DNA from: Octopus vulgaris
Taxonomy: Eukaryota
Length of the DNA: 64,000 bases
Reading direction: 5' to 3'
Assembly (NCBI GenBank): GCA_951406725.2
Contig: OX597834.1
Span: 7,130,001 to 7,194,000 of the forward strand
Below the pieces are notes generated by a model that saw only the letters and a list, made by a program, of their open reading frames with translations, was not told where the DNA came from and did no database searches. Positions 3,535-50,226 of the stretch are shown here, in pieces; position 1 is the stretch's first letter; each line of letters opens with the position of its first letter. The translations under genes and the position numbers were made by a program.

Positions 3535-3738
3535 AATGTGACCGCGTGTATACTGTTGGCGATTTTTTTTCCTTCGTCTTCCCTTCTCTGGATCTTTCCT
3601 TTTGCTATGTTTCTGACGAAGAGCTCCGCTCGAAACGTTAAACCCTCCTTCTTCCCTACCTTCCTGAGCGTCCAATAACACTATATTTGTTCTACATCCT
3701 CGCGTTGTTGTGTTTTCACTTTGTGTTTTCATGTTTGG

Positions 3739-14657: not shown

Positions 14658-15844
14658 AATAACGAAATTTAAATATTCTAACGGTTAGATTGCCCGACTT
14701 CAGTTCAATTTTTCTCTAGTGAGTAGATTATATTTCGAAAATCAGCATATTGGCTTTGAAATAATTTTCTTTAGCCCTTTCTTATAAGACACAAAAAGAA
14801 AATGTCTCTCCTCAGCCACAACAGAATATGCTTCAACACATGAACTCATATAAAGAATCATGCAAACCAAATCCAAAAACGAAACTGAATGAAAATATCT
14901 ATACAAATTTTTCCTTTACTGAAGTGTGTATGAATTTTTGGTTGACTCTGTACATGCCTGGCAGGCTTTTCTTAAAATCCATCCAGCAAATCCACTCTCA
15001 AGGCTTTGGTTGCCAAAGGTGCCATACAGCAGGACTGAACTTGGAACCATCTGGTTGGGAACCAAACTTCTTATCACACATCCACATCTGCGCCTATATG
15101 GTAAATTTTCTTTAAAATTCCAGTTAAGGAACTCGATTTGTTAGTAAGGGACTGAATAAGTTAAAGTTTGGTTTTCCATAATTACATAAATCAGATTTAT
15201 ACAATTAGGAATTAATAATATATAATTAATTAATGGAATCCAAAACTGTAATTTTAGTTCTATTTAAAGAATCTATGACAGATTTATATTTTGGTTAAGC
15301 GATATATTTATGATGAAACAATATATCTAATTACGGAAAATAAAATTGTAATATAAATATATACCCAGAAAATATAATGTAATATTTCAGAATTATTTAA
15401 AATTAATTTCAATAAAATTACAGTTCTATGAAAGCTATGAGAAAGTAAGATACCGATCTATTTTTAATTAAAAATGACATCTTACATGTTATATCATTCA
15501 CTAGAAAGATTTTTTTTTCCCTCACAGTAAAAACATAAAATGTTTGGTGAAAATATAATTAAAACTTTCTAATCTACCACATGCAATTAAAGTCAAAATA
15601 TTGCTTCTTCCGATCTGGTTGAGTTGAAAATACTTTTGCAATACCATGTACCACAGCCTACTTTCCTGCTTTAGCATAAATTATTGCTCCTCTAATCTGG
15701 TTCTGTGACTAGAAACGAACTGGGTTCTTATTTCTAGCATCTACAACTGCACTATTTCAAGGAACTTTGCACTTAAGTGTTGACGCCATATCGAAGAGGC
15801 CAGGGAACAGAAGAAAGAAGAAGAAAGAAAACATGCACTCAACA

Positions 15845-15953
15845 CCAGAGCTGAAGACACCTCCGAATGGAGTGCCCCGCCATGTCAAAACGGTTGAGGA
15901 GTAGGGGCTGAAACCGGACATGGTTCCTCCTGATGATGTCTTGAGCTAACTGG
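15845..15953 (+). ncRNA. Candidate permuted hammerhead-like structured RNA
   Basis: GUU at 15893-15895, stem I GAGGAG/TTCCTC, stem II GCCCC/GGGGC, GAAAC at 15910-15914, stem III CGGT/ACCG, CTGATGA at 15930-15936, basal helix 15845-15859 with 15937-15953. Confidence 0.55.
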
Positions 15954-16239
15954 ATCCTATAAAGGAGCTGTTACAGTAGCAGACCACGAAACACGGTTGA
16001 AATTCCTCCACTGTTAATTCCACCAAGTTGTATTGATATACCTGCTAAAAATGACCATTTTTACCAAAGCCATTAGCATATACATTCATTCTGCCGCTCA
16101 TCAACAAGTAATATGGTACATATTTTGAATTTTTTTGAGATTAAGAATTAAAAGAGTAGTTACTTTGGGAAATCCTCGTCAAAGTAATTTTTTTAAAGTT
16201 CTAAGCTTCAAATAGATTTTGAAAGAAGAGTCACATTAT

Positions 16240-41966: not shown

Positions 41967-42238
41967 CGTACACATATACGACAGGCTTCTTTCAGTTTCC
42001 GTCTACCAAATCCACTCACAAGGCATTGGTCGGCCTGAGGCTATAGTAGAAGACACTTGCCCAAGGTGCCACGCAGGGGGACTGAACCCAGAACCATGTG
42101 GTTGGTAAGCAAGCTACTTACCACACAGCCACTCCTGCGCCTTCTTGAACACAAAATCATAAAAAATTTTGGAAAAAGATTAAAAAAGCAAATGAATCAC
42201 AGGGTGTTAAAAGTTGTGCTTCCATCTGAACTGCACCC
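40608..42238. mobile_element. Fold-back MITE with long TIRs, a SINE A insertion and an internal tandem duplication
   Basis: GGTGCAATTCAGATGGAAGCAC... at the left and ...GTGCTTCCATCTGAACTGCACC at the right. SINE A lies at 41135-41541 and 41709-42141 (-), each preceded by the same about 160-bp flank. Confidence 0.75.
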
Positions 42239-42507
42239 TTATTTATCAATGGTTTCAGTCATTAGACAATGGCCATGCTGGAGCTCTGCCTTGAGGGCAT
42301 TCGATCGATCGCATCAACCCCAGTACTTATTTTATTGATCGAGGTTGCAGAATACAAATACAGACACAAATATAATGTAAACACATTTGGTTCATGTCTT
42401 GGATCTCTCAGACATCTGGATTTGATTGGATGTGGCTCTTACGTTAAGCAAGTTTGACCCCCTCAACCCTTCCATCACTGGTATATGCATTGTTATATAT
42501 ATATATA

Positions 42508-43109
42508 TCTATTTCTTTATTACCAACAAGGGGCTAAACACAGAGGGGACAAACAAGGACAGACATAGGTATTAAGTCGATTGCATCGACCCCAGTGCGT
42601 AACTGGTACTTAATTTATCGACCCCCGAAAGGATGAAAGGCAAAGTCGACCTCGGCGGAATTTGAACTCAGAATGTAACGCAGACGAAATACCTATTTCT
42701 TTACTACCCACAAGGGGCTAAACACAGAGGGGACAAACAAGGACAGACATAGGTATTAAGTCGATTACATCGACCCCAGTGCGTAACTGGTACTTAATTT
42801 GTCGACCCCGAAAGGATGAAAGGCAAAGTCGACCTCGGCGGAATTTGAACTCACAACGTAACGCAGACGAAATACCTATTTCTTTAATACCCACAAGGGG
42901 CTAAACACAGAGGGGACAAACAAGGACAGACATAGGTATTAAGTCGATTACATCGACCCCAGTGTGTGTAACTGGTACTTAATTTATCGACCCCGAAAGG
43001 ATGAAAGGCAAAGTCGACCTCAGCGGAATTTGAACTCACAACGTAACGCAGACGAAATACCGCTAAGCATTTTGCCCGGCATGCTAACGTTTCTGCCAGC
43101 TCGCTGCCT
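42508..43109 (-). mobile_element. SINE family B, three-unit tandem array
   Basis: About 183-bp units with the head at about 43109. Confidence 0.9.
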
Positions 43110-43488
43110 TTGTTATATATATATCAATAGAGACATCTACTTGTTACCTTCTACTTTTCTTGTTACACCTGTTTTCCGTGTCAAAGATTACAGGTATGGT
43201 ATTTGAGACATGACAGTCCAGGTTAGTAATATTCCAACATCCATTTACAAATCTAAGAAAATCGATAGAAGCACCACCACCGCCACAACCACCACCACCA
43301 CCACAACCACCACCACCACCACAACCACCACCACCACCACAACCACCAGTCAGAATATTTGGACTGGATATGGCTGGTTCAAATGTCACATGATGTGATT
43401 GTTTGTTTCCGATGACATTGCAGGGTAGATATGAAAGGTCTGACCCAGCTGGTTTGATCACGAAACATTAAAATATTTGGGCTGCATA

Positions 43489-43698
43489 TTCTCTTTACTC
43501 TTTTACTTGTTTCAGTCATTTGACTGCGGCCATGCTGGAGCACCGCCTTTAGTCGAGCAAATCGACCCCGGGACTTATTCTTTGTAACCCCAGTACTTAT
43601 TCTATCGGTCTCTTTTGCTGAACCGCTAAGTGACAGGGACGTAAACACACCAGCATCAGTTGTCAAGTGATGTTGGGGGGACAAACACAGACACACAA

Positions 43699-43757
<59 letters not shown>

Positions 43758-43918
43758 TACGACAGGCTTCTTTCAGTTTCTGTCTACCAAAACCACTCAC
43801 AAGGCATTGGTCGGCCCGGAGCTATAACAGAAGACACTTGCCCAAGATGCCACGCAGTGGGACTGAACCCGGAACCATGTGGTTGGTAAGCAAGCTACTT
43901 ACCACACAGCCACTCCTG
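43489..43918 (-). mobile_element. SINE family A, full length
   Basis: Reverse-complement homologue; further copies at 47735-48176 and 60200-60521 (-). Confidence 0.9.
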
Positions 43919-44014
43919 TTCGTTTAAATTCTAAAGGCTGAAGCAATGTTTTCATAATTGAGAGTGTGGTGATAGCATGTGCACGCATATGTATATATGT
44001 GCACGTGTATTTTT

Positions 44015-44525
44015 TTTCATTTCATCTAGTTTCAGCTCACGAGCTTTGGCCAAGCTGGGGCAACGCTATTTGGTGTTGCTACATAATTTTACTTCACGAA
44101 TGCTTTTTAGCAAATGATATTTGGTGCATGAGAGAGTTTGATGCAGCTGCCCTCATCTGCACCTCCTGCCGTGAAGTTGGTTCATCTGGGACACCTGACA
44201 GGAAGAGGTCCAGCTTTATTTTGAAGACACCTACATCCACCCCATGCAGGTCTCTTAGGTCCTTTGGGAGGATATTGAAGAGCTGTGGATCTCTGAAGCC
44301 CAGGCTATTGCAATATCTTGTCCTACATCTTGATGGCAAATTTGGAGTCCTTGGCACTATGCAATGGCACCCAGTTCTAGTATTTGTGTAACTCTCGATG
44401 CCAAAGTTTGGGACAAGTCCTTCCAGGATCTTCCAGATGTATACTATGGTATAACTTTTTCGCCTACGCTTTAAGGAATAGAGTCTTAATCTCTTGAGTC
44501 TTTCCCAATAACTTGTTTGCCTGTA
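44015..44525 (-). mobile_element. CR1/L2-group LINE 3' fragment
   Basis: SYWERLKRLRLYSLKRRR...IVYIWKILEGLVPN...LFNILPKDLR...FKIKLDLFLSGVPDEP, then a short UTR and ATGAA-repeat tail. Confidence 0.85.
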
Positions 44526-45512
44526 TTTCATGATAAGCACACAGACTATGACGAATGGTTTAGGAAATTGTTTCACAGTTATGTGAGAGAAAGTTTGATC
44601 ACACAATATATCACCCTAGGCAAGTGTTTTCTACCATAAGTGCAAGCTGACCCCAGATTTGTGGCAGAAGTTAGTTAAGCAGAAACTATGAAGAAAGCAA
44701 TCAGATGCCTGATATCTCTAGTTCAATGACCTATGATACAATGTCACACATTGAATCATACTTATGAAGCCTGAGGATACATATTAAAGATACAAACTTC
44801 TATGGAATACACAGCCATTAAACAACTCTAGAGTTTAATACGTAAGACAGTGGTTCTATTGATTGAAAAACTGGAAAATTCATAATCGAAGTGGATACAG
44901 GATCCTCGTATTTCATATTTTTATGTTAAAACGTAGCCTTTGTTTCACCAATTTGCAGCATTTTGAACAAAAGTTTACCAAAGTCAGTTCCTAATTGACG
45001 TAGAACTGGATTCCCTTGACTCCAACACACAAGGCAGCGTATCAACGATTTTATTTCAACAAGCAGATATCTGATAATGTTAAAGATGCCAAGGGAAATA
45101 TGAAAATATGAGTTTGGGTACTTTGCCTGAGCACACCGTTGTGTCGTTTACTTCCAAACTAATGGAGAAACCGGTTCTTGTGATTTAGGATTATATCAAA
45201 GCGGATAGGAAGGAGAAATGTGTTTAGGATGGGGAAACAATATTATTTGAAAGGAAAGTCATCTCAAACACAATATACTTATGTGTGCGTTTGTATGTGA
45301 TTGAAATTAGGTGTGAATGGTGAGGGCGTGTATATAAGTGTATGCCTCTTGCCTTGATGTATATATGTGTGTGTGATTATGCATGTGTTTCTGTGTGGGA
45401 TATACGTAGAATGTATCTTATTCTATCTATCTATCTATCTGTCAGTCTGTCTGTCAGTCTCTCTGCCTATCTGTCTTTCTCTCTCTCTACTCTCTCTCTT
45501 TCTTTCTCTGTT

Positions 45513-45566
<54 letters not shown>

Positions 45567-45663
45567 CATATATATACACACATACATGCACACATTTATA
45601 TCTATTAATTTCCCTTTCTATATAAATATCTACTCTCTCTCACTTCCGCTGTGTGTGTGTGTG

Positions 45664-45701
<38 letters not shown>

Positions 45702-45715
45702 CATACATACATACA

Positions 45716-45747
<32 letters not shown>

Positions 45748-45839
45748 CTGACACACACACACAGACACATATATACATATATACATACATGTATAAATGT
45801 ATATAAATATGTGTATGTGTGTGTGTATGTGTGTGTGTA

Positions 45840-45887
<48 letters not shown>

Positions 45888-46633
45888 CATGTATATATAT
45901 ATATATGTGTGTGTGTGTATATATATATATATGTATGTGTATGTATAAAATTCTTTATGCAGGATTTAACGCGTGTGTATATGAATATGATTGAATTCCT
46001 TCCCACCTCGTTCCCCACGCCAACCACCAGTACGTGCCTAGGATAAAAGACAAAGCAGATCCGTTGATGTTTCAAATCAGAACTGATGGTTATGCATTTA
46101 GCCAAGTGCCTTCCTTCCTATTTCCATCATTCTAATAATCTGTTGCTATTCAGGCATTGACGATGTTGTGGTTGTTGCTGATTAGCCTCAGATCAACACT
46201 AATTGAGTAACCTCACGTTCAAAAGGCTCTAAGCCACTGTAATCCCATCGAAAATCGTTTTTCGGGAATGAGGAGATTAAATAGAATGTGTTGCGATGTA
46301 GGTTTCAGTCGTCCGCACCTTGAGTTCAAATCATGTATAGGTCAATTTTTCCTTTCGTTCATTTGAGGGTTATTAAATAAAGCACCAAACTGATGCTGCC
46401 TTAGTGCCCTCACCCTCAGGTTGTCACAGTGCCCCCATCCTCAAGCCGCTACAGCGTTCTTGCTCATGATTATTAACAGGGCTCTTACTATTTAGCAGTT
46501 GCAGTTAGGGTGTCCCTCTAGAGCAGTGATGACCAATATATTTCCCCATGTGCCCAAGGCCCCACTAGAACATTCCAGAAAAATGTCTGCATCATTAGTG
46601 GTTGGAAAAAGCAATTTCATTTTTAATTTTTGA

Positions 46634-47030
46634 CTAGCAGTATCGCCCGGCGTTGCTCGGGTTTGTAAGGGAAATAACTATATAAGCATTTTTAGAGATG
46701 TAAAGTATAATAGCCATCTCCATATGGCTAACCTCAAAGGGAGGGGTGTTACTGTAGCTTTTTACGTTCTGAGATTTAATAATACATTTTTAGAGAGTTA
46801 CTTCCCTTATATATGCCAAAAATGCATTAAAAATGGGAAAAAATGATGGTAAATTTTTTTTTAAATCGTAGACTCATCGTAGACGTGCACTAATACCCAG
46901 AAGGGCATGATATGAATCACGACTATAAAATACCCGGTTTTGGTTAAACTGCACCGCAAAATGTGGGAGTAGTTAGGAATCTAAATCGTAGGAGACAGAC
47001 AGCACACAACCTCACTTTTATATATAAAGA
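46634..47030 (-). mobile_element. Complete non-autonomous Helitron (397 bp)
   Basis: The minus strand begins TCTTTATATATAAAAG and ends with hairpin CCCGAGCAACGCCGGG followed by CGATACTGCTAG. It is inserted between A and T with no TSD. Confidence 0.88.
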
Positions 47031-47282
47031 TTACTGATTAAGGTGGTAAGTTGGCAAAATCGTTAACACACTGGACAAAGTTCTTAGTGGCATTTTATCC
47101 ATCCTCACATTCTCGTTTCAAATGTCACTGAAGTTGACTTTGCTTTTCATCCTTCTGGGGTCGATAAAATAAATACTAGTTGAAAACTGTGGTTGATGTT
47201 GTTGACGTGTGCTCTCCTCCAGATGTGCTAGCCTTGTGCCAATATTTGAAATCAATATTTCATAATCAATATCTATGTAAAC

Positions 47283-47705
47283 CACCTCGAGGAATGTGAA
47301 GATGCAGGCTGGAAAGCGGAACATTTTCCTATCGAAGTCGGATGTAGAGGGTTTGTTGGACACAGCGTGAGACGACTGTTGTTATTGCTAGGCCTAACTC
47401 ATCGTAAAGTCAATATCACCATGACTGATATCCAATCTACAGTGGAGAAGGCTAGCCACTGGATTTGGTTAAAAAGAGACGATGAGCGATGGCTAGAAGG
47501 ATATAGAGTTTAACTTCATAACCAGCTGATCTAGCAAGCGGGGCCTCATATCAGTGAGGGGGGGGGCAGGTGCGCATTGATGCCGTCGAGAGGTAGGCCC
47601 CGAAACAGCGTGCATTCTCTCCTGATGACCCCATACACTTGCTCGCTTCCAGTATATGGAGATTTTGACTGGTTGCACTTGCATGTGCAAGTTGTTTGCA
47701 AGACA
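47283..47705 (+). mobile_element. HERO-like (restriction-like endonuclease) non-LTR retrotransposon 3' end
   Basis: Uninterrupted frame 47283-47513: EECEDAGWKAEHFPIEVGCRGFVG...LG...EKASHWIWLKRDDERW. The GW-x-PxEVGCRGF...ASxWxWLKR pattern is typical of the HERO-type REL C-terminus. A structured 3' UTR follows. Confidence 0.8.
47521..47673 (+). ncRNA. Candidate permuted hammerhead-like structured RNA in the HERO-like 3' UTR
   Basis: GUC at 47585-47587, stem I GAGAGG/TCTCTC, stem II GGGGCCT/AGGCCCC, GAAAC at 47602-47606, stem III ATGCCGT/ACAGCGT, CTGATGA at 47622-47628. Confidence 0.6.
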
Positions 47706-48172
47706 TATATATTATTATATATTTTATTCCTATATTCTTTTACTTGCTTCAGTCATTTGACTGTGGCCATGCTGGAACACTGCCTTTAGTCGAACAAGAT
47801 GATCCCAGGACTTATTCTTTGTAAACCTGGTACTTATTGTATCAGTCACTTTTGCCAAACCACTAGGTTACAGGACGTAAATGCACCAGCATCGGTCAAC
47901 AAGCAATGGTGGGAGGATAAACACAGACACACAAATACATACATATATCCATCCATCCATCCATCCATCCATCCATCCATCCATACATACATACATACAT
48001 ACATTCATATATATATGATGAGCTTCTTTCAGTTTTTGTCTGCCACATCCACTCACAAGGTTTTGGTCAGCCTGAGGCTATAGCAGAAGACACTTGACCA
48101 AGGTGCTATGCAGTGGGACTGAACCCAGGATCACATGGTTCAGAAGCATAGCTTCTTACCATACAGCCACTC

Positions 48173-48220
<48 letters not shown>

Positions 48221-48367
48221 ATGTGTGTATGTACTACTAATATAGGATGAATTTTTTACAGAAAAAATTTCATCCAAAAAAGTGGCAGCATATTAAAATA
48301 CCTTAAAAGGTTAAAATTATAAACAACTTATAAACAAGGGCAAATTTTCTTTTGCCCTTGTTTATAA

Positions 48368-48415
<48 letters not shown>

Positions 48416-49435
48416 TGCACACCATACCCATAGCAGCTATGTATCAATGTCCACCAGAAAAACCCTACCCATGGTACTGTGGTCAATATGATTCCTCTTT
48501 AGTCGTCAGTAAATTCTCATATGGGGTGCATATGCAGAGCCTACCCTTACTGTCGCATGGCCTATGTCGTGTCTAAAATTATTCCTTCTGTCACATACTC
48601 TGTTATCAACTGCTTCTTGAACTAACAATATATTTGCCTCATACTCTCCAAATACCTTCCAATTTTTATGGAAACTCATAGACCAATGATCAGAACACTC
48701 TCTAATTACATAAAATACCCTCAAGATATCTACTCGATACTCTCAACAGAATAGAATATAGATTTCAAATTTTGGCACCAGGCCAGCAAATTCTGAGCGG
48801 GGGTAAGTCTGTTAGAATGACTCCTGTGCTCAACTGGTACTTTGCCTTTCATCTCAAAAGGATGAAAGGCGAAGATAACCTTAGCAGAATTTGAACTCAG
48901 AACAGTATGCTAATGGTACTGCCATCTCACCATCTTACCAGAAGTAATTGTAGTAGTTCCAAATTTTGGCACATGGATGACAGTTTCAGGGAAGGGACAA
49001 GTCTATTAGATTGCCTCCAATGCTCAGCGTGTATTTATTTTGTTGATCGTGGCCTTTGCCAGCCTACCCTGGCACCTGTGCCGGTGGCACCTAAAAAGCA
49101 CCATCCATATGTGGCCGATGCCAGTGCCACCTTGACTGGCTTCTGTGTTGGTGGCATGTAATAACTACCAACTGATGGTGGCTATTACCAGCCTCCCCTG
49201 GCTTCCGTGCCGGTGGCACATAAAAAGCACCAACAGATCATGGCCGTTACCAGCCTCCCCTGGTGCCTGTGCCAGTGGCACATAAAAAGCACCCACTACA
49301 CTCATGGAGTGGCTGGCGTTAGGAAGGGCATCCAGCTGTAGAAACACTACCAGATCAGACTGGAGCAGGCTCCTGGTTTCCCAGACCCCAGTTGAACCGT
49401 CCAACCCGTGCTAACATGGAAAACGAACGTTAAAC

Positions 49436-49470
<35 letters not shown>

Positions 49471-50226
49471 CAGCTGAAAGGAGGAAAAGCCATGTCAAAC
49501 TTGGCAGAATTTGAAATCAGAAAATATACAAGAAAAGTTCTGCTAAGCATTTCGCCTGGCATGCTTACAATTCCACTAGCTCACTACCATTCAACAGAAC
49601 AGAATATAATGTAATCTGTCAAAGAACAAGGCTTTGGATATCAAAGAAGTTAGCTTTATCATTTAATAGAATTCAAAGATTCTTCAGGATATCTACCATA
49701 TGCCTTAATGCACCAAACTTACAGAACCAGATTCTTAGACATGAAATTTAATGAGCATCACAGAGTACCTTCTCCTGATTGCTACAAGCTTCTTCAAAAT
49801 CTCTGACTGCCCCACCCCTCAGATCAATAAAACTGAAGAATCAGGTATGCTTTTAACTTTATGGAATTTTGAGTTTTAAAGATTTAAGTCTCAAACTGTT
49901 GTTACAAATATTGAAATTCTATTAAATATGGTGAGAGTTTTTATCTTAGAATTTGTCCACTTAAGTGTATATCTCTCTCACTCTCTCCCCTCTCTCTCTC
50001 TTTCTCTTTCTCTCTCTCCCTCTTTCTCTGTCTCTGTCTGTCCATCTGCCTGTTTGTCTGTCTCCCTCTCTCTCCCTCTCTTTCTCATATATATGTATGT
50101 ATGCATGCACAATTGTTGCTTCAATCAAGTGTATAAATATATATGTACGTATATGCACACACACATACATATATATTTTTTATGTAGCTATGTATCTATC
50201 TATGTATCTATATCTCTCTGTTTATG

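Follow-up and report, generated by a model that had tools for sequence, protein, structure and literature searches.

The closest described RNAs to the one reported here are the hammerhead ribozymes permuted in a non-circular way, types SGC (HRIMA-1), CSG and GCS (Eckert et al. 2023, PMC10085705), of which SGC examples cleave during transcription at 0.007-0.19 per minute. In PMC10085705 block C, made up of a stem I strand, CUGAnGA and a stem II strand, is assumed to be interruptible by 1-2 bases at most, and SGC examples in its supplement have links of 0 nt between stem III and the interaction helix and of 3 nt between stems I and II. Among mobile elements, Cervera and de la Pena (2014, PMC4209133) proposed a cycle with a circular template for Penelope elements, and for retrozymes circles have been shown, RtcB being more efficient than self-ligation in vitro (PMC7229834). 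HERO is a largely non-specific RLE clade (PMC4640811), for which neither a ribozyme nor a more-than-unit layout was found in the literature searched.

Our analysis concerns 64,000 nucleotides of the Octopus vulgaris genome (GCA_951406725.2, contig OX597834.1, positions 7,130,001 to 7,194,000, forward strand), called the window below and providing all coordinates. A sequence-only reading had placed a permuted hammerhead in the 3' UTR of a HERO-like retrotransposon there, and our data bear this out: the motif lies in such a UTR and is conserved with covariation across distant families. The host, positions 47274-47706, is a 5'-truncated repeat copy with 2433 candidates in the 2.8-Gb assembly (227 contigs), the best 40 at 94-100%, and a 22-base anchor from the UTR of this family (family 1) has 1032 exact genome matches. 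The family-1 unit is 3738 bases long with one ORF of 1115 amino acids; the protein of long copies has a weak N-terminal zinc finger and a reverse transcriptase (RT), and its best solved relatives are R2 proteins. With a single ORF, an RT followed by CCHC and PD..D nuclease motifs (the latter read by eye; Pfam names the RT only) and dispersed 5'-truncated copies, the element belongs to the RLE-type non-LTR retrotransposons. We term it HERO-like from its anatomy and lack of site specificity, a putative clade placement. With the HERO clade (PMC4640811) it shares a single ORF encoding zinc finger, RT, CCHC and restriction-like nuclease, and dispersed copies, often in AT-rich or microsatellite sites. 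The coordinates of all features are collected in Table 1. A common short interspersed repeat adjoins the 3' end of the element (47750-47920, + strand) and is also found beside several sister copies. Further upstream, 44094-44615 on the minus strand resembles what we take to be the C-terminal end of another LINE ORF.

Table 1. Features of the two retrotransposon families in the window.
Feature	Position	Strand	Basis or remark
Second, older HERO-like family, same architecture, different helix sequences	15779..16010	+	descriptor
Family-2 motif	15849-15947	+	H17 at 15895
ORF 3' end, restriction-like endonuclease C-terminus, of 5'-truncated non-LTR retrotransposon copy	47274..47513	+	ORF translation, sister copies
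Outer helix, 5' strand	47521-25	+	pairs with 47669-73; folds of six copies, alignment
Basal helix, 5' strand	47531-38	+	pairs with 47638-45; folds of six copies, alignment
Helix A, 5' strand	47540..47543	+	pairs with CCCC 47629-32, immediately 3' of CUGAUGA
Hairpin B	47544..47559	+	stacks straight onto helix A
Stem II, 5' strand, from G10.1	47563..47567	+	second G-run
P4, 5' strand	47571..47575	+	counterpart of type SGC's stem I-II interaction helix
Stem III strand and GUC triplet	47582..47587	+	predicted cut 3' of C47587
Stem I, 5' strand	47588..47592	+	covariation
Stem II 3' strand; GAAA; stem III strand	47597-601; 47602-05; 47605-09	+	core alignment
P4, 3' strand	47610..47614	+	pairs with 47571-75, stacks on stem III
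Stem I 3' strand; CUGAUGA	47617-21; 47622-28	+	core alignment
Helix A 3' strand; basal helix 3' strand	47629-32; 47638-45	+	folds, alignment
Terminal hairpin and ragged insertion end without poly(A)	47678..47706	+	sister copies

A letter check found every string of the sequence-only reading in place, namely GGGGCCT (47540-46), ATGCCGT-C (47580-87), GAGAGG (47588-93), AGGCCCC (47595-601), GAAAC (47602-06), TCTCTC (47616-21) and CTGATGA (47622-28), all 3' of the ORF stop TAA at 47511-13, whereas most sister copies stop at 47505-07. Its pairing of stem II was wrong: the 5' strand is not 47540-46, a choice that is helical in 2 of 22 representatives, and the true partner is the second G-run. Two further helices, P4 and hairpin B, were absent from it. 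The corrected strand order is A5'-hairpin B-II5'-P4-III-GUH-I-II-GAAA-III-P4-I-CUGANGA-A3', which has the topology of type SGC with a gapless three-way junction set in between A9 and G10.1. In this predicted fold the RNA ends leave the hammerhead through helix A and block C is split. The A-C mismatch in stem III had been put down to CpG decay, in keeping with the sister copies, where 58 of 90 position-ordered loci, taken among the first 100 matches listed of 1032, carry ACGGC and 11 carry ACAGC (9 matches were left out of this set, 6 of them long copies already included). As for the basal closure, the GATCT/AGATT pairing is private to the window copy; most copies have AGCTT there and pair CTAGCAAG with CTTGCTAG, as judged from folds and an alignment of 30 sister copies. 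The window copy is decayed, with a G>A change at 47607 in stem III, a second G-run 9 long compared with 5-6 in young copies (47568 being a C>A change) and loss of the usual stop codon; other copies would be better suited to an assay. Its pseudoknot-blind fold is unremarkable (z 0.06), minimum-energy folding being blind to the motif's two pseudoknots.

The RNA has the hallmarks of a hammerhead. CUGANGA, GAAA and UH with A15.1-U16.1 are present (letters demanded by our descriptor, H17 excepted), stems I, II and III abut this core and covary, with G10.1-C11.1, and the C3-G8 tertiary pair is found, replaced by U3-A8 in two related loci (L110 and L112). The blocks run S-G-C and not in the C-G-S order of the circularly permuted three-way junctions of types I, II and III, which agrees with the earlier proposal of a hammerhead core outside these types. 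Block order and the stem I-II interaction helix are those of type SGC, from which the RNA departs in that its block C is broken, the stem II strand coming from upstream in 22 of 22 representatives. No Rfam family covers the motif: in 42000-50000 Rfam gave only microsatellite-driven miRNA matches below threshold, and in 10 loci nothing at gathering score. The novelty holds in part, since the non-circular permutations SGC, CSG and GCS were already published (PMC10085705) and the opening at A9/G10.1 and the host context are new. We found no tested precedent for helices inserted at A9/G10.1, nor this strand order in the literature searched. Outside that search, which was judged from listings and passages, lay subscription journals, Repbase Reports and preprint supplements; it likewise returned no paper in which a hammerhead is tied to HERO or to other RLE elements. 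From the comparisons that follow we regard this as a real, widespread hammerhead variant, built like SGC and lying outside types I-III and type SGC as defined, which was apparently undescribed before.

Relatives were fetched with an alignment of 21 C-terminal proteins, yielding 82 loci at 24-60% protein identity (80 metagenome loci, chosen as the best of 83, plus 2 on genome contigs). A descriptor of the strand order demanded GAAA, (C/U)UGAN(G/A)A and U16.1 and left H17 free. It parsed the six-helix architecture on the forward strand of 33 of the 82 loci, a count that includes near-duplicates, and hence matches that are not independent, and one locus with a wrong stem II (L092). No match occurred in 234,431 bases of reverse strand, and when the core letters were fixed and the rest shuffled, the six-helix score of the real sequence was reached by 0 of 100 shuffles at every one of 14 loci, the window copy and 13 others; on these two counts chance resemblance was rejected. 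The remaining 49 loci gave no parse, many of them ending soon after the ORF or being visibly decayed. In some (L114, L162) the motif lies 500-600 bases out, and no parse was obtained in a subclade for which 2 kb of downstream sequence is available (e.g. L117, L118, L125-L127). On a quick protein tree with many short rows the motif is spread across the clade. Among viral contigs the pattern had 8 matches, none of which was confirmed. Several of the long 3' UTRs (L109, L114, L119, L122, L124, L127, L136, L137) also hold a short conserved AGCCGAGG-like stretch outside the hammerhead motif, possibly another structured RNA. Loci L161 and L162 are contigs in bacterial genome bins with animal-type retrotransposon ends, likely host contamination.

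All six helices covary in 22 representatives, which were chosen because they were parsed and were trimmed by the descriptor. Pairing of the helices is 0.91-1.00 within families, partly by construction, compared with 0.38-0.91 across families outside two invariant pairs. Helix sequences are replaced wholesale across families (helix A of L081, for example, is TGGAGA/TCTCCA), and the hammerhead core is fixed. In stems I and III 98.2% of 168 cells are paired with 41 two-sided changes, against 35-52% in slid controls. The links from A9 to helix A, helix A to hairpin B and hairpin B to G10.1 hold 0, 0 and 0 unpaired bases in 20 of 22 representatives, G10.1-C11.1 is present in 21 of 22, and the sequence 3' of CUGAUGA could form only 0-2 pairs with stem II in all 22. 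A structure-blind alignment of 21 of these descriptor-trimmed sequences (49% column identity) left as invariant columns only GU, GAAAC, U4-G5-A6 and A9. H17, free in the descriptor, is C in 14, U in 10, A in 9 and G in 0 of 33 loci, and N7 takes all four letters. The U3-A8 swaps of L110 and L112 are probably one event, U3 stands with G8 in L085 and L086, and a compensatory U3-A8 swap occurs in active natural hammerheads (PMC3088659). The letters that the descriptor leaves free behave as in active hammerheads, and we consider it very probable that the six-helix RNA of the 3' UTR is an active hammerhead which self-cleaves after GUH.

The second family in the window has 1416 candidates and about 43% protein identity. 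Most of its copies have A at H17 and some have U, and in many copies part of the stem II 5' strand is missing. Head-to-tail copies of more than unit length were found at 3 of 20 family-2 loci.

The layout of family-1 copies bears on what such a ribozyme might do. Of 20 long loci picked for long ORFs or paired matches, 18 were oriented, and 7 of these consist of a partial copy followed by a full one with a period of 3734-3738 and one junction sequence. Copies long enough for the 5' UTR are more than unit length and therefore contain two motifs one unit apart; in them the equivalent of the terminal segment (47678-47706) continues seamlessly into the 5' UTR. At all 25 loci where the 5' UTR start is present, 3'-end sequence lies directly upstream of it, on which ground a linear RNA starting at the 5' UTR was rejected. 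The seamless head-to-tail junction has 19 exact matches in the genome, no two of which lie one unit apart. Upstream, 15 of these loci extend past the predicted cut and 4 stop short, and a linear RNA starting at the upstream cut in the manner of R2 was rejected as the sole route because of the 15. In three of the seven tandems both repeats share private variants (1, 5 and 3) that are absent from all others of the 18 aligned loci, so one unit was copied twice; no such variant was seen in the other four, whose overlaps are short. Layout and shared variants together indicate a template that was continuous across the junction and the GUC site, with the unit sometimes copied more than once. Insertion ends are ragged and without poly(A), and of 74 recognisable ends 37 run 1-6 bases into the junction, 17 of them 3-6. 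Contigs from 3 of 4 contig-only sequencing runs span the junction with about 31-35 letters on the short side; as the RNA status of these runs is a guess and contigs do not reveal ends, we give them no weight. The more-than-unit layout is also seen in the distant loci L103, L110 and L086, where an ORF start lies behind the UTR, though collapsed assembly is possible. Repeated GGAAAGAC-like words occur in 5' UTRs of several families (in the 5' UTR of L064 and L517, downstream in L103 and L110), and at one locus (L072, G000:C11:84626000-84635900) two family-1 copies about 5 kb from each other face in opposite directions, where pairs are usually head-to-tail.

We lean towards a whole cycle in which unit RNA is cut from more-than-unit copies, circularised and reverse-transcribed from an internal site, a reading of the genomic copies that we hold to be somewhat more probable than its negation. 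Read-through transcription and cleavage at both motifs would release a 3.7-kb monomer, whose ends would be brought together again by pairing in stems II and III, P4, helix A and the basal helix and could be joined by the ribozyme or an RtcB-type ligase. The element protein would then bind the folded domain, target-primed reverse transcription would start about 120 bases past the joined site, and its passage across that site, sometimes for more than one round, would regenerate more-than-unit copies. A template other than a covalent circle, either a clamped doubly cleaved monomer with an RT jump or an uncleaved linear read-through RNA from a locus that is more than unit length or arrayed, would give head-to-tail copies equally well, and uncleaved oligomers have been proposed as Penelope templates (PMC6765202). 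There are copies that end precisely at the cut, and in one or two (L172, L292) distant element sequence is joined on at this point. The sequence across the cut is nearly always exact (GTC/GAG in 62 of 90, most others being single changes), however, no two junctions lie one unit apart, although arrays could have been collapsed by the assembly, and the shared private variants call for one unit copied twice; we therefore judge an active ribozyme with such a template rather unlikely.

If cleavage occurs, truncated copies might record it. A pattern for copies starting right after GUC had 12 matches, of which 8 follow unrelated flank, 1 follows distant element sequence and 3 are intact with two changed letters. 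With a position-blind pattern (106 matches, 100 listed, of which 70 were analysed as loci and 30 left out for element sequence upstream by eye), 9 of 47 true truncations spread over 49 positions fall at the predicted bond, the equivalent of 47588, and the next highest position has 4. All 9 follow a T, without a match to the element. The pile-up has p 2e-5 under a uniform model; allowing for over-dispersion, p is 7e-4 if the site is set beforehand and 0.036 if any of the 49 positions may count. Truncations in a control window were also clumpy, a single position in a broad T-rich cluster taking 7 of 55. In family 2 the pile-up was not reproduced (0 out of about 14 and 1 out of about 9, by eye, in the first 100 of 271 and of 197 matches), with patterns swamped by indel variants and of low power. 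The family-1 pile-up is thus suggestive as a possible trace of cleavage. Three loci on different backgrounds (L166, L167, L170) have GCT in place of GTC at the scissile bond, which could reflect either an error that recurs at a nick or a pair of ordinary substitutions, and a broad hot zone of 5' truncation lies 237-251 bases upstream of the cut, with about 14 of 90 family-1 copies in 15 bases.

About 1% of copies stop at the predicted bond and the rest cross it, and this near-uniform passage is what would be expected if the fold were a non-catalytic or relic hammerhead kept as a binding site for the element protein that places the start of reverse transcription. Insertions do end at a fixed distance behind the RNA domain, about 116-126 bases past the cut, and the split block C is without a tested precedent that we could find. 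The pattern of conservation is nonetheless a catalytic one, with H17 never G, N7 free and the U3-A8 swap, and the truncations gather at the exact bond, so that we give a mere binding fold little credence. The position of the insertion ends also speaks against the earlier suggestions that the cut defines the 3' end of the element or that the motif acts as a switch making the 3' end of the RNA. The same reading had held the linker too short for an easy monomer fold and had proposed that the motif may act in trans, with the core shared by two RNAs. The three inter-block links are indeed all retained and short here, more of them than in any tested permutation, so that monomer folding is a prediction, and Penelope hammerheads do act as dimers (PMC4209133, PMC6765202). 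Yet equally short-linked SGC ribozymes stand in the supplement of PMC10085705 and SGC examples cleave co-transcriptionally, which weakens the linker argument, and stem III has a full 5-6 bp here and is not the short palindrome of dimeric forms. A core formed only in trans, or a 3'-end switch, is to our mind the least probable of these readings.

Beyond the octopus family, we see even chances that an entire clade of autonomous R2-related animal LINEs replicates through circular coding RNA made by a hammerhead whose core is split by the three-way junction, with target-primed reverse transcription starting inside the circle and not at a 3' end of the RNA. If true, the split-core form would be a seventh hammerhead architecture, and one breaking the three-block rule used to enumerate permutations, for which reason Rfam would miss it; non-circular permutations would move from environmental RNA to abundant animal repeats. 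The circular-template idea of the Penelope type, proposed and unproven, would gain a testable R2-related case. As the R2-related lineage is now used for genome writing, it may also matter that its endonuclease-RT may start inside circular RNA.

Compared with known systems, the RNA is closest to type SGC (PMC10085705), with which it shares the S-G-C order, the core, the short stem I-II linker and the helix that connects stems I and II at their far ends. HRIMA-1 has one extra U between A9 and G10.1, in likeness to the opening seen here. In type SGC, however, CUGAnGA enters stem II on one strand, whereas in the octopus element it runs into the helix A/hairpin B junction. The SGC, CSG and GCS examples described come from metatranscriptomes, metagenomes and one bacterium, with no eukaryote genome or retrotransposon among them, while here the motif lies in animal genome repeats. 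Penelope-like elements (PMC4209133) likewise have head-to-tail more-than-unit copies, a hammerhead in the repeated part and a proposed circular template; they differ in having a telomerase-like RT and a GIY-YIG nuclease, neither found in the octopus protein with its R2-like RT and restriction-like nuclease, and minimal type I dimeric hammerheads in place of a large pseudoknotted form. Retrozymes of metazoans and plants (PMC7229834; see also PMC4918200) are cut twice into monomers that bear 5'-OH and cyclic phosphate ends, as the octopus RNA would be in the cycle proposed, but are short and non-coding with type I or III motifs, whereas the octopus element is a 3.7-kb autonomous one whose 3738-base unit encodes 1115 amino acids. 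In R2, with an HDV-like ribozyme (PMC13580325), and Perere-3, with a twister variant (PMC8501958), a self-cleaving ribozyme likewise frees the element RNA from a longer transcript; there the RNA is linear with the ribozyme at its 5' end, and the cut is where copies begin, whereas in the octopus element the motif lies behind the ORF and the junction copies mostly pass the cut upstream.
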